Below, piece after piece: positions 694-19,335 of a stretch of DNA of 64,000 bases. Under the pieces are notes generated by a model that was given only the letters and a program-made list of their open reading frames with translations, was not told where the DNA came from and ran no database searches. The DNA comes from Sedimentisphaerales bacterium (GTDB lineage: Bacteria > Planctomycetota > Phycisphaerae > Sedimentisphaerales > SM23-30), in NCBI GenBank assembly GCA_963666285.1, contig OY762711.1, one strand, 5' to 3'. Each line of letters begins with the position of its first letter. Position 1 is the stretch's first letter. A program made the position numbers and the translations under genes.

Positions 694-3600
694 CTACTTG
701 GCCAAAGCCTCAAAGTAAGCATTTATCACTCGCTCGTAGCCTTTATATTTCGAGGTCTGGTCCTGTTGGTTAGTGTCAATTTCCGTACTACCGGCTGCAT
801 TTTGAATATATCGCGTTCGAACCTGGCTGCCGATTTCATGATGTGATTTTTTCAGAGAGTCAAGAGTCTGATTATAAGCCCTTCGTAATTCCGGACCGAT
901 TTTAGGATTATCCAACTCATTTTCGAATGTCTGCATATTTTCCAAAGCACTTTCGAGTTCCGCAGTTGAAAGATTATGGCGATGTAACCTGGGTATAAGT
1001 TGTCGGGCAGAATTTGTAATAGCCTGCTGCTGAGTTTTGGCATCACGCATCTTCTGCAGAACCTTTGGCGGCAGTTGGCCACCAGAGCCAAAAATTGAAG
1101 CCTGATCAGTCATTTTGCCAAGCCCGGTACCACCGGTTTGTGCCCCAACATCTTCATCCCGCACATCACCACTCTCCAATGGCGTATTACTGGTTCGTTC
1201 TCGCAAAGAATATTCATTATCATGCAGATCTTTGGCAACAGATTCTACCATTTGTCCTTCACTCATGCCAGAACGCCCCGCCCCGCTTCGGCCCTGTATA
1301 ATATTATCTTCCGGTTTCTGGTCACCGGTAACACCCTTGGCACTGGTAGATGCAATAGTGCCATCAGACACAGGACCTGCTGTATGGTCAAGCGAATTAA
1401 GATAACTGCCAATATCTTCAACCTCCTGAGCCATCTCTTCTTCTGACGTAACCAGATCGCCTACCAGGTCTTCCAGTTCATCAGGCAGTTCTGCAAGAGG
1501 AGCGACCAGCTGCAGGTCTTCCGGCACTTCAGCAATAAACTGTATATGATCATAAAAATCCATAGTAGCTTCACAATTTATAAGAATCTCTTCAGCCATT
1601 TCAACAAGTTCAGTCTCCAGGCGGTAGGCATCAACGCGTGCCATACGATCATCGGCTGCCTGATCAGCTGTTTCGGCCAGATTTTCAGCGGCCTGATAAA
1701 TACTTGTCAAATTTTCAACCATCGCAGGATCGCCAAAATCCTGCAAATCTACTTTCGTAAAGTCATTCACTGCCGAACTTAAGATTTCAGCCAGCCTGGA
1801 CTGGTCAATCGCCAACCGGGCAAGATTGTCAACATCATCTTCGGTAAAATCCTCTACCGCTTTATCCATAATAAGGTCACGCCGGTGAGTTATGTTTTTT
1901 TGATGACTAACAAAATTATCAAGCTCAGTTACAAAATCATCCAATGACTCATCAAAAGTTTCATAAATTGACTTATCAAGCTCTGCTTTGGTTTGATTGC
2001 CGGCAGCTGCATTTTTGTCCTGCTCTCGCTGTAAAGCAATATCAGCTTTAAGGGCAATCAGCCTATCAAGAATATACTGCTGGAGTTCAGTAATACCAGC
2101 TAAAGAACGCCTGGTCATAGAGATATCCGGTTTACGCTGAGATGCCAGTACAACAATCTTGCTCAAGACCCTTGTATTTTCACCCCTGTAGATCTCACTA
2201 ATTTTATCTATAAAATCAGATCCCGGTTCAGAAGCACTGAGTACGGCCTGGTTTAGAAAACTACCTACCTTGGCCTGCTTACCCTGCAAACTATCTCGAT
2301 GGAGAATCAAATTATCACGGGCGGCGGCATCGTCACCAGTAACAATATCATCCAGATTAGCGATAATATTCTGCGAAGCTCCTAACGCATCTTTTTGGGC
2401 ATCAATAGCCTTATCCAGCAATTCAAAGACACCAATCGCCGGATCATCCGGGGCAAGAGTAATATCATCCAAAGACCGTATCGAAACCACTAACGGACTT
2501 GAATAGGATAAATTCTCTTCAGGACAAAAATCGGCGGCAACTGCACGTATGATATAACTGCTGCCCGGCTGAAATTTATGGGCATCGAGTGACAACAGCA
2601 GGTTTTCTTTTTTACTTTTTACTCCGGGCGGCCCTTCATAATCAGCAGAATTGACAACTTCAGGTTCAATAGAAGAATTATCTTTTTCAACAGTAACCTT
2701 AAACCAGCTCAGGCCATAATCATCAGAAAGCTTAACAGGTATATTCAAACGCTGACCCGGCACAGCAACCAAACTGAGCTTGTCTGTCTCAAACTCAATA
2801 TATGGCGGACTGTCAAGAGCAGGAACGACATTTCCGGCAAGAACATCAACTATTTTACCAATAGCCTTATAATCAGCCTTAATCGAATAGCTCCCCGAAA
2901 TACCAGCCGTAAAATCCAGAGTAAAGTTTTTTCCATTACCATCAAACAAAGAGGTTTTGCCCTGATAGATAAACTGCAAACTATCAACTGCTTTATCAAG
3001 AGTAATATTCATGGAAATTTTTGTATTCGGCAGAACAGAAATTTCGTTATTAGTTATATTCAGTTTATCAACATTACCTCCCGTATACTCCGGCAGTGCT
3101 GCCAGAAACTCGGATTTAACAACACAAGGCACCTTATTAACCTTAACCACAACAGAAGAGCTGTAAGTATCACCGGCAAAAACTCGAAAAGCCATATCAT
3201 GACGGACATTCTTAAAAGTATAAGTAAAGCTGTCGGCCCGTCCATCGACGGGATTTACCGGACGAACATTAAGATCAGATGTTTTAATTCCAGGCGGAGT
3301 TGCATCGACATAATAAGAGTCTCTACGCCATACTATTTCGGGATATTTTTTAAGCTGATATCCCGCGTGGTAAGTTTTGACATTTATTTGCACCTCCAGG
3401 TCATCACCTTCTGCAACTATAATTTCATCTCCATTCAAAACACCAATCTCTATCATGCCGGCCGGAGGAATATCTGCAAGCGGTTTCACATAACGACTCA
3501 TTGCATTCAGGGCATGACGGGTATGGGTAATACCGTAAGCCGTCCAGCAGGATAAAACAACAATAACAGCAAAGCTAAAAATCCTTATCAGTTTTGTTTT

Positions 3601-16991: not shown

Positions 16992-17449
16992 TTAGTCACG
17001 ATCGGTAAGCCGGTAAGTCATATCAGCTTTTACCTTGTTTCCTTTGGCATCTGCGATGACAACCGGTGTAATTTCGAACTCCGGAGTCTGGTCGCCGGAA
17101 ATCATAAAGTGGAGGCGGGCACATCTGAACTTACCGGAAGGTAATGATTTATCGAGATTGAAAGCGGCAAGTATGATTCTGCCATGATTAAGAGCCTTTG
17201 GGTCGTAATAGCCCGGAGCTTTGAAAGCCTCGCAGTCGCCGCCTTCAACGCCGGAAAGCTTTGCAATACCTGATGTTACCTTAAGTTCGAACTGGTATGC
17301 CGCGATAGACTTATCAGCGGAATCGATTATGATATCGACAGGTACAAACCTGACATTGCTGAAGTCAGCCTGCGGTTCAAGAGCTTTGCCGAAACTGTAT
17401 GTAAGTGCGGTAAAACAAAGGGTTAATATAATAATTGTCATTTTGTTCT
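16992..17449 (-). CDS. Secreted cohesin-like beta-sandwich protein, exon 2 (spliced CDS = 18172-18169 + 17449-16992, 153 aa)
   Basis: Joining ATGA to AG AAC AAA ATG gives in-frame MKNKMTIIILTLCF..., a good signal peptide. The mature part has a cohesin-like pattern: VPVDIII..IAAYQFEL...GRIILAAF...ARLHF...IADAKGNKV. Confidence 0.65.
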
Positions 17450-18168
17450 GTCGAGTAGGCATGTCGCCTCCTTTCATTAATTTAACAAATTCTGAGTTTC
17501 ATTATATTTTGTGCAAGGAAACGCATGCCCCTCACAGAACCGGACTTGAAGATTTCCCTCATCCGGCTCTTCATTAATGCTCACTTTGACGGCTACATAA
17601 GGCAAAGTAATGTGCCTTGTAGAAGTCTCCGATAGAAGACGCTGTGGAACGTTCATGGTTTCTTCCAGTTCAGTGCCTGGCCAATATCCTGTTTCGCCTT
17701 TACACATTAATGCTGACCCCTTCGAGTGCCTCAAACTTCGAAACTCAACAGGCATTACCCTGTTTACTCCTCTACTATGAGTCAGTCCGACTACCAAAAT
17801 GCCATACGGCCGCGTCACGGTTTCAGCTCCTTGGCCGCTTCCTTTCGGAGCACTTCGGTTCTCCCAAGTTCCAATGCAGTCAGTTCGTTTGCCCGCTACG
17901 GACTCAGACCCCGGCTCGTCGATATATGCTCGCCGTATTTCGCATATATCGATATTGGCTTCAGGCATATGAAAACCCTGGCCCGGATGCGATAAGGAAT
18001 AATTTCGGGGCTCAACACCTTCACTTGCGTTGTGGCTGACAAACTCCTTTCCCGGGGCTTCGTACAGTTCGTTACCTCTCTGCACGCCCGGTGCTGTAAT
18101 GGGCGGGTGGCTAGCCCTTACCCATGCCGGATTGGCCGGCTTGACTACATTAGCTTCGCTTGGCGCTC
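17450..18168 (-). mobile_element. Group II intron lacking a reverse-transcriptase ORF (719 nt), inserted after nucleotide +4 of the host CDS
   Basis: Domain V GAGCCGGATGAGGGAAATCTTCAAGTCCGGTTC (17537-17569, AGC triad). Domain VI stem with bulged A at 17456 and 3' end CCTACTCGAC. 5' end GAGCG. EBS1 UCAUAU (17967-17972) in a CAGG/CCTG loop complements exon end ATATGA. Removal restores the reading frame. Confidence 0.9.
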
Positions 18169-18188
18169 TCATATTATTATCCTTCAAT

Positions 18189-18680
18189 TTAATTTATAAT
18201 CATTGCCAGCTGAGAGTTTAACCGGGCAGCAGCCGCCTGGTCCAGGTTGTTTATCTCAACTGCTTTATTGGCAACTATTTGCACATCAGTAATAGAAAGA
18301 TTATTGTCGTTGTTATAATCCCATTTCCGGTCGTATATGCCCTTGTCACGGATATGGATAGCGAGAGTCATAGCATCGAGTATATCTACACTTCCATCGC
18401 GGTTAACATCCTGCGGGGCAAAGGTTTGGGAATTGTGTAATACAAAGAAAGCCGATATAGCGACAAGCACAATTGCCGCGGCATATCGTAAATAATGTAT
18501 TAGAGGAGATTTACGCCGTTTGTTGAAAGCATCAAAATGAGCTCTGGCTCCCTCTAAAACAGCTCTATCAACATCAAGCGGAAGTTGAGAATCAGTTGTA
18601 AACTCTTTTTTCAATTCGAGTTGCAACTCATCTGATAGTTCCGGGATATCATCAAAATTGTTAATATTATTGTTATCCAT
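18189..18680 (-). CDS. Putative anti-sigma factor: acidic cytoplasmic N-terminus, one TM helix, extracytoplasmic dockerin type I-like domain
   Basis: Directly follows the ECF sigma. TM segment YAAAIVLVAISAFFVL. Paired loops DVNRDGSVDILDA and DYNNDNNLSITDV. Confidence 0.7.
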   Translation of the reverse strand: MDNNNINNFDDIPELSDELQLELKKEFTTDSQLPLDVDRAVLEGARAHFDAFNKRRKSPLIHYLRYAAAIVLVAISAFFVLHNSQTFAPQDVNRDGSVDILDAMTLAIHIRDKGIYDRKWDYNNDNNLSITDVQIVANKAVEINNLDQAAAARLNSQLAMIIN

Positions 18681-18744: not shown

Positions 18745-19335
18745 TTACAAGAATAGTAATATCAAAGCTTTAAGGTCACGGATATTTTTAATAGCAGGTG
18801 AATCTTTAAGTTTTTTGAGAGTTCGATAATAAGTTGTCTTCACACTGCTTTCGGATATCTCAATCGCGGAAGCTATCTCGGCGAGTGTCATATCATCAAC
18901 GAACCGCATAAGGAGTATATGCCGCTGGGTATCGGATAGGTTGTCAAGAAGAGAAGCGAGATGTCGTCGCATTTCGTCTTGCGGCGTTTCGCCAATGGGT
19001 AAAGACGTATCAGGGATGTCAAGCGGCAGGTCAACGGATGAGTACCGCCGCTTACGTTCCTGCTGACGGATGACAGTATTCCGTACTGCCGGATACAAAA
19101 AAGATTTCATGCTGGAAGTAAGCGAAAAACCTGGAAACCGCGTATAAAACCACGTAAAGACCTCCTGGCAGACATCAGCTGCAATATTTTCGTCTCTATT
19201 GGCCAAACGCCAGGCAAGCTGGAAGGTCCAGTTTTTGTATCTCAGATATATACGCTCAAACCCTGCGACATCACCTGAATTAGCAATGGCAATATCGGTC
19301 TGGTCCTGAGCGTTAATATTGGAAGCATCTAACAT
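18745..19335 (-). CDS. ECF RNA polymerase sigma factor
   Basis: Region 2 (GDVAGFERIYLRY...AADVCQEVF...SFLYPAVRN) and region 4 (LSDTQRHILLMRFVDDMTLAEIA...SVKTTYYR). 196 aa. Confidence 0.9.
   Translation of the reverse strand: MLDASNINAQDQTDIAIANSGDVAGFERIYLRYKNWTFQLAWRLANRDENIAADVCQEVFTWFYTRFPGFSLTSSMKSFLYPAVRNTVIRQQERKRRYSSVDLPLDIPDTSLPIGETPQDEMRRHLASLLDNLSDTQRHILLMRFVDDMTLAEIASAIEISESSVKTTYYRTLKKLKDSPAIKNIRDLKALILLFL

Follow-up and report, generated by a model that had tools for sequence, protein, structure and literature searches.

The locus described here lies on the minus strand of a 64,000-nucleotide (nt) stretch of DNA from Sedimentisphaerales bacterium (contig OY762711.1 of assembly GCA_963666285.1). 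The whole stretch is hereafter called the window, and coordinates are window positions unless another sequence is named. It contains a group II intron lacking an open reading frame (ORF) for a reverse transcriptase (RT), located one base past the ATG of a gene for a 153-amino-acid (aa) protein whose N-terminus is signal-peptide-like. A first-pass annotation, made from the letters, had described a Shine-Dalgarno (SD) sequence and ATG of the host gene, exon-binding sites EBS1 and EBS2, and a further SD/ATG pair within domain VI of the intron; all of them were found where it had placed them (Table 1). G000 denotes the genome of the window, and other handles of the form G### and L### denote genomes and loci, respectively.

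Table 1. Features of the intron, its host gene and the surrounding operon (IBS, intron-binding site; ECF, extracytoplasmic function).
Feature	Coordinates	Strand	Details
ORF-less group II intron	17450..18168	minus	719 nt, 5' GAGCG ... CGAC 3'; Rfam RF02005 and RF00029
Domain I core, intron nt 34-270	17899..18135	minus	Rfam D1-D4 model RF02005
EBS2 loop AUUAUUCCUU	17994..18003	minus	includes anti-SD-like UCCUU
EBS1 UCAUAU	17967..17972	minus	complementary to AUAUGA, 6/6 base pairs
Domain V	17537..17569	minus	RF00029 and two D5-only models
Domain VI, extended	17453..17533	minus	branch-point A bulged at 17456
SD-like AAAGGAGG in 3' strand of domain VI	17467..17474	minus	pairs with CGUUUCCUU at 17523-17515
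Domain VI AUG	17460..17462	minus	13 nt before 3' splice site, in phase with exon 2
Open frame from host ATG through whole intron	17477..18172	minus	231 codons; stop TAA 17479-17477
Host SD GAAGGA (proposed IBS2)	18180..18185	minus	7 nt upstream of ATG
IBS1 ATATGA, last 6 nt of exon 1	18169..18174	minus	holds ATG and first base of codon 2
Host start codon ATG	18170..18172	minus	followed by A 18169, first base of codon 2
Exon 2 of host gene	16992..17449	minus	spliced product 153 aa
163-aa protein gene	18189-18680	minus	dockerin type I domain; stop codon 16 nt before host ATG
ECF-type sigma factor gene	18745-19335	minus	upstream, same operon
Two tandem paralogues, 848 and 700 aa	12264-16943	minus	each VIT and vWA; downstream of host gene, same operon

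The proposal of an RT-less group II intron was borne out by covariance-model searches. The Rfam model RF02005 was matched over its full length (1-225) with 115.9 bits (cut-off 49, E = 3.7e-33), in keeping with a domain I-IV architecture, and RF00029 was matched at 17450-17571 with 55.5 bits (cut-off 40), covering domains V and VI with the catalytic AGC triad in place; no RT ORF was found within the 719 nt. In the minimum-energy fold the bulged branch-point A lies 7 nt from the intron end, which reads ...CCTACTCGAC down to 17450, exon 2 (AGAACAAAATG) starting at 17449. The consensus termini of group II introns are 5' GUGYG and 3' AY according to the accessible text of PMC4424553, and the terminal CGAC agrees with AY. 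The 5' terminus is GAGCG in all copies within G000 and in their RT-encoding parents, most other relatives carrying GUGCG or GUGUG and one (L121) GAGUG. By the covariance models, 17450-18168 is an intact group II ribozyme, splicing itself being predicted. No relevant promoter or terminator was detected within the intron when its minus strand was scanned. The 3' intron-exon junction is spanned by a match resembling a promoter (TCGACA, 18 nt, TATATT; 10/12) at 17425-17454, also on the minus strand, but it is probably meaningless because its -10 element falls within coding sequence.

The target appears in two parts, the exon end facing EBS1 and the SD facing EBS2. EBS1 and the exon end vary in step among the relatives, and therefore the assignment of the splice site is sound: the EBS1/IBS1 pairs are CCGUGU/ACACGG in G018, GACUUU/AAAGUU in G020, UCUUAA/UUAAGA in the RT-bearing copies of G000, UCAUGG/CCAUGA in L128, UCUUGU/ACAAGA in L132, UCAAUC/GAUUGA in L135 and UCAUUG/CAAUGA in L137, and the exon-binding site likewise covaries with its target in L151. 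In the window, EBS2 pairs UCCUU(+UUA) with the AAGGA of the SD by 5+3 base pairs with one bulge. EBS2 loops are mostly CCU-rich in the ATG-aimed relatives, and in relatives aimed elsewhere (G018, L132, L135) they covary with their own exon, with 2-3 nt spacing. The pairing of EBS2 with the SD, already suggested by the first-pass annotation, gained statistical support from the occupied sites: AAGG(A/G/T) was present 4-6 nt upstream at 7/8 intron sites, compared to 38/280 (13.6%) likely true gene starts of the form DTATGAA (P ~6e-6, treating the sites as independent). Thus, the SD is read directly and is not a mere companion of start codons. Judged by complementarity and covariation, the intron recognises its target through base pairs, which EBS1 forms with (A)UAUGA and EBS2 with the SD's AAGGA.

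The genome of the window (6.35 Mb in 4 contigs) was searched for sister copies, and eight full-length copies of the intron, with 0-3 differences between them, were found. In addition, there are a 648-nt variant, two ORF-carrying relatives of 1929 nt and several fragments. All eight copies are located one base past an ATG, as start-codon targeting had implied, with an AAGGA-like...TATGA sequence upstream and an A as first base of exon 2. In-silico removal of the intron opens ORFs of 153, 333, 515, 512, 379 and 271 aa in six of them, and five of the interrupted genes gave Pfam matches (BD-FAE esterase, DUF3472 plus GH16, transglutaminase-like, HlyD-type and a prepilin N-methylation motif). The interrupted genes encode unrelated secreted or membrane proteins and are not housekeeping genes. 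The read depth of the intron in run X1 was about tenfold that of its flanks; DNA contigs assembled from runs X1, X3, X4 and X6 break at the intron ends, and none of them bridges an empty site.

The recognition motif AAGGA-N4-6-DTATGA-A occurs at 60 unoccupied sites of the genome, 41 of which (68%) lead into an ORF of 100 codons or more, so that sequence recognition alone predicts about two-thirds of insertions on real gene starts. An SD-like motif is found at just 805/6256 TATGAA sites genome-wide, and together with an open frame of at least 100 codons at 355. Two of the unoccupied matches (positions 5271060 and 5788654 of contig C1 of G000) open only a 5-codon ORF (MKDEG*). In sequence, sites of this kind mimic a gene start, and the intron copy at 5266367-5267085 sits in one of them.

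Homologues of the 153-aa host protein without the intron are encoded in 6/40 related genomes, and five of the six probably start at an SD...ATGA with a signal peptide after it. The spliced start MKNKM... that had been predicted was met in the allele comparison: the homologue in G035 begins ATGAAGAAC, in the fuller context ...gaaggagtgctgtgATGAAGAAC, which is the exact predicted junction. Similarly, the orthologue of the interrupted HlyD-type gene is uninterrupted in the same-genus genome G003, where it starts with ATGAAG in the context ...aaggaagtagataaATGAAG. On this comparison of alleles, the intron-less homologues begin where splicing would place the start. The host protein itself had no Pfam family, even at E up to 5; its conserved middle may resemble cohesin modules. 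Mechanical ORF calling at the locus gave a 161-aa ORF (MKGGDMPTRQ..., 16992-17477) and a 236-aa ORF across the intron (17477-18187) instead of the 153-aa spliced gene. The annotated 5' ends of genes at loci of this kind are likely wrong; gene callers mis-annotate them.

Domain VI carries the second initiation signal. Its fold (-27.9 kcal/mol, z = -4.64, 0/200 shuffles as good) has both the SD-like element and the AUG fully paired, and reading from this AUG on an unspliced transcript gives MPTR(Q/H) followed by exon 2, in phase in 8/8 copies (MPTRQ in the window). The AUG stands 13 nt ahead of the 3' splice site, a distance that always puts it in frame with exon 2 given the insertion phase of this lineage. 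The claim of a paired, in-frame SD and ATG in domain VI extended to the relatives: of 14 distinct ones, 14/14 have a paired AUG and 13/14 a mostly paired SD-like element, as judged by per-sequence folds, the register of the helix shifting between members. The distance between both elements is 7-9 nt in relatives and 4 nt in the 719-nt family. Among the matches listed from metagenomes, an SD-like 4-mer precedes the AUG by 7-9 nt in 62 of 75 distinct domain VI sequences. Compensatory changes in the helix (AGGAAC/GUUCCU, AGGAGAU/AUCUCCU and GAGAAAGUC/GACUUUCUC) leave the 3' strand SD-like, and more distant relatives (L089 and a minus-strand copy in L059) have a short ordinary domain VI without AUG. 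We infer from these patterns that the domain VI AUG may be used in translation.

Related introns were detected in 12/40 related genomes, and a search by RT alignment returned just six loci, in metagenome-assembled genomes titled Phycisphaerae, Pirellulales, Planctomycetota and Spirochaetia. At the 5' junctions in genomes, exon 1 ended in ATGA in 17 of the 22 readable cases. Among these are the three copies of G037 that encode an RT, of which one lies in a prepilin-type gene. Metagenomes were scanned with the conserved 3' end motif, giving at least 117 loci; the junction counts that follow are among the matches listed. Where 150 nt or more of exon 2 could be read (101 distinct 3' junctions), an in-phase ORF follows in 67 (66%), compared to 9 and 14 in the other phases, in agreement with the 68% predicted from the recognition motif. 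Exon 2 begins with A in 81/101 and encodes a hydrophobic, signal-peptide-like N-terminus in 42/101. For 17 placed 5' junctions, the exon ended in ATGA in nine and in GTGA, TTGA and ATGC in one each; two more have an ATG within 3 nt, with the boundary uncertain, and three lie elsewhere. The GTGA and TTGA sites open no ORF, as expected if site choice is driven by pairing.

The two 1929-nt relatives in the same genome encode an RT of 443 aa and are 86% identical to the 719-nt intron in domains I-III. In Pfam searches this RT matched RVT_1 only, without HNH or other endonuclease domain, and in a sequence search of the PDB it matched solved group II RTs. On contig C1 of G000, the parent at 910721-912649 is intact, with a YADD motif, whereas that at 5395368-5397267 (L024) has YADN in its place and is thus probably RT-dead. 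Similar purine-rich repeats with tandem ATTA(T/A)GA at their end precede both RT-encoding copies, the 648-nt variant and a 5' fragment (around 910640-910720, 5397268-5397350, 1613480-1613560 and 5748460-5748537 of the same contig), and related purine-rich flanks are present in G018 and G012. The parents may thus have a repeated element as their home site. From cumulative GC skew, the origin was placed near 5.70 Mb and the terminus near 2.65 Mb, and all 13 intron copies and fragments (13/13) were oriented with replication-fork movement. Endonuclease-less introns reverse-splice into the lagging-strand template, and the co-orientation is as predicted for them, gene orientation bias contributing as well. 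A decayed relative was found at 1400-3460 of a gammaproteobacterial plasmid, Caedibacter taeniospiralis pKAP298 (L215, NC_005915.1), with an RT 64.7% identical. Its domain VI ends likewise (AGGAG, 8 nt, ATGTCTACTCGAC), but a T-run disrupts the 5' part, the ORF in phase is short and the annotated RT coding sequence is truncated. This best plasmid match was considered as a reference for the class and discarded, being a decayed relative and not a named reference.

The frame that starts at the host ATG stays open through the whole intron and ends 14 nt before the domain VI AUG, in 8/8 copies. An equally long open stretch in any frame arose in 3/20000 mononucleotide shuffles. Database searches gave 253 look-alikes of the translated frame, with recurring lengths of about 131, 195 and 230 aa. 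One look-alike of 230 aa is 71% identical over its full length, with all 230 codons open; about 45 clusters of 190-201 aa begin at intron nt 104, with AUG or GUG, and share the stop ahead of the domain VI SD, and many look-alikes of 131 aa end in domain IV. In the RT-encoding members G037, L057, G018, L119, L135, L136, L137 and L162, the frame is open for 126-133 codons and stops between -5 and +29 nt from the RT start (TAAcaATG in G037 and L057), the host frame proper stopping at codon 5-35 in these members. That the frame is a protein gene was rejected, as the substitutions lacked codon periodicity, variable columns being distributed 49/56/55 by codon position (p = 0.76; 10 members with a mean identity of 80%). 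At least 100 codons were open in 12/25 members chosen regardless of ORF, compared to 2 and 0 in the other offsets, and a column-shuffle null gave a mean of 0.66 and never reached 12 in 2000 trials, although this null ignores relatedness and therefore overstates stop avoidance. We infer that stops are avoided to let ribosomes pass, which would provide coupling with the RT or with the domain VI start, or else prevent polarity.

Taken together, these data suggest that the window intron is probably a non-autonomous (RT-less) copy of a mobile group II lineage specialised in translation-initiation regions. A related RT would spread the copies in trans by reverse splicing into the template of the lagging strand. 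At the mRNA level, splicing would normally remove the intron and restore the native SD-ATG-AAG start. While the intron is folded, the pairings of EBS2 and EBS1 and the domain VI helix would hide both initiation sites, and from unspliced transcripts the host protein could still be made from the domain VI SD/AUG, with MPTRQ replacing MK. As unspliced transcripts could thus yield host protein, insertion would cost the host little and the element could settle in ordinary gene starts.

The affiliation with the Avi.groEL-related lineage, which had been put forward in the first-pass annotation, did not hold. The accessible text of PMC12584367 describes this IIB1 lineage (Avi.groEL, EcKTE56.groEL; Biochimie 2007) as introns inserted in or next to start or stop codons, always with a 5'-subterminal insertion of 300-700 nt at domain I's base, together with a CL1 RT that has a C-terminal endonuclease domain. 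The window intron resembles them in its insertion in or next to an initiation or termination codon, and there is a common logic in that the groEL introns recreate a stop codon on insertion, leaving the unspliced product unchanged, as would an intron-borne start (PMC12584367, same portion). In contrast, the window intron has 719 nt in all, with the RF02005 match beginning at intron nt 34, and its relatives encode a 443-aa RT with RVT_1 only; without a large domain I insertion and with no endonuclease domain in the RT of its relatives, it does not belong to that lineage. Also, the IIB1 introns reside in housekeeping hosts with one cognate gene per intron, whereas the family described here uses generic SD+ATGA sites, mostly in genes for secreted proteins, and a start signal in domain VI, present in the window intron, is not mentioned for groEL introns in the portion of PMC12584367 available.

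Other known systems share single traits with this lineage. ORF-less introns served by an RT in trans, in Thermosynechococcus elongatus (Mohr et al. 2010, PMC2882425) and in the dnaN and RIR genes of Trichodesmium (PMC12584367), are, as here, deletion derivatives with near-identical copies and RT-encoding relatives in the same genome; the accessible parts of both articles report neither targeting of ribosome-binding sites or start codons nor an in-phase domain VI start for these families. Introns of groups IIE and IIF are described in the accessible part of Nagy et al. (2013, PMC3753933) as small IIB-like ribozymes of 450-700 nt without ORF, with EBS1 and EBS2 in domain I, like the window intron. 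Their EBS2 is dispensable for self-splicing, with a proposed role in retrohoming (PMC3753933, same part), a behaviour that by analogy would fit an EBS2 used mainly for the choice of the SD in the window intron. No mapping of RF02005 (D1D4-6) to the lettered intron classes was found, and the likeness to IIE/IIF need not mean class membership. Finally, group IIC-attC introns with outward-facing promoters (PMC3001079, accessible part) also provide expression signals for the downstream gene and so soften polar effects, but there the signals are promoters and the targets attC stem-loops, whereas in the window intron the signal is a translation start within domain VI and the target a start codon.

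Several observations weigh against the reading of a lineage that targets initiation regions and carries its own spare start. The 5' end GAGCG departs from the usual GUGYG at position 2, and the EBS1 of both parents fits UUAAGA and not AUGA, one of these parents being the YADN copy. The spacing between AAGGA and IBS1 ranges from 4 to 6 nt over the eight sites, so that the EBS2 pairing must be flexible. Copy 5266367 occupies an ORF-less look-alike site in a purine-rich repeat, copy 2351430 precedes an ORF of only 86 codons and of doubtful status, and about one-third of the metagenome junctions, among the matches listed, have no in-phase ORF. In the literature searched, neither a start within domain VI nor targeting of generic SD+ATG sites is described, which is not proof of novelty, and overlap with Michel et al. 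2007 is possible. As the domain VI AUG and SD are part of a helix, their conservation could follow from ribozyme structure alone; the metagenome set cannot test the conservation of the AUG, because the motif used for its selection includes it. Both elements might then be mere parts of a lineage-specific extended helix, with host genes expressed from spliced mRNA only. Their complete pairing in the predicted fold, the compensatory changes, the constraint on the last 13 nt of all group II introns and the retention of the AUG in members retargeted off ATG (G018, G020 and the parents in G000) would fit such a view. However, distant relatives do with a normal short domain VI lacking the AUG, the 3' strand remains purine-only and SD-like (AGGA, GGAG, AAGG) through its variants, stop codons stand directly 5' of the SD, and the phase of the AUG matches exactly the insertion phase of the lineage, so that a purely structural role is considered rather unlikely.

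Two further explanations concern the fate of the transcript. The absence of an RT or maturase from the element, the divergence of the parental RT genes, the non-consensus 5' end and the open host frame with its stop right before the domain VI SD, together with its second instance in the 71% identical look-alike, could indicate that the copies are no longer spliced and that the host gene is expressed only through the domain VI SD/AUG, directly or by reinitiation 14 nt past the 231-codon frame. This appears quite improbable, as eight near-identical copies imply recent reverse splicing and hence a competent ribozyme, the covariance-model scores are high, the EBS-IBS pairings are intact at each site, and most relatives have early stops in the host frame. 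Alternatively, the ribozyme could be a dedicated translation/splicing switch of the operon, which is headed by an ECF-type sigma factor gene and in which the intron follows the stop of the dockerin gene by 16 nt; the intron, when folded, is predicted to hide both initiation sites. Yet the same element, with 0-3 differences, is present at seven other loci with unrelated neighbours, and all features invoked for the switch run through the lineage, across many genomes and metagenomes. The intron showed no ligand-binding or alternative-fold element, and 60 matching sites are unoccupied, which opportunistic insertion would predict. Given identical copies at seven unrelated loci and features common to the lineage, a dedicated switch is very unlikely. 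Ribosome loading and EBS pairing could plausibly compete, in a generic kinetic manner, for the same nucleotides.

A more far-reaching proposal can be advanced tentatively, as possible but by no means probable. The lineage may find its DNA target as an initiating ribosome finds its mRNA, with an anti-SD-like EBS2 and a CAU-containing EBS1, and may be built for translation-through, the stop-free frame, free of amino-acid constraint, ending either where the RT begins or just ahead of the domain VI SD/AUG and, in the 719-nt family, running from the host ATG itself, so that termination and reinitiation would relay ribosomes from the host ATG to the RT or to the host gene. If true, the intron would exploit the initiation signals of its host and avoid polarity, and the host gene would be expressed even without splicing.

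Bacterial group II introns are thought to persist mostly by avoiding genes, for instance behind terminators or inside other mobile elements. The lineage of the window intron appears to do the opposite, aiming at the ribosome-binding site and start codon, where a gene is most sensitive, with two short guides similar to the 16S anti-SD and the initiator anticodon; a replacement start seems to be the price it pays for start-codon targeting. If this is true, it would constitute a new strategy of coexistence between intron and host and a natural case of competition between splicing and translation initiation over the same stretch of 20 nucleotides. It would also offer a ready-made guide design for targetrons aimed at gene starts.

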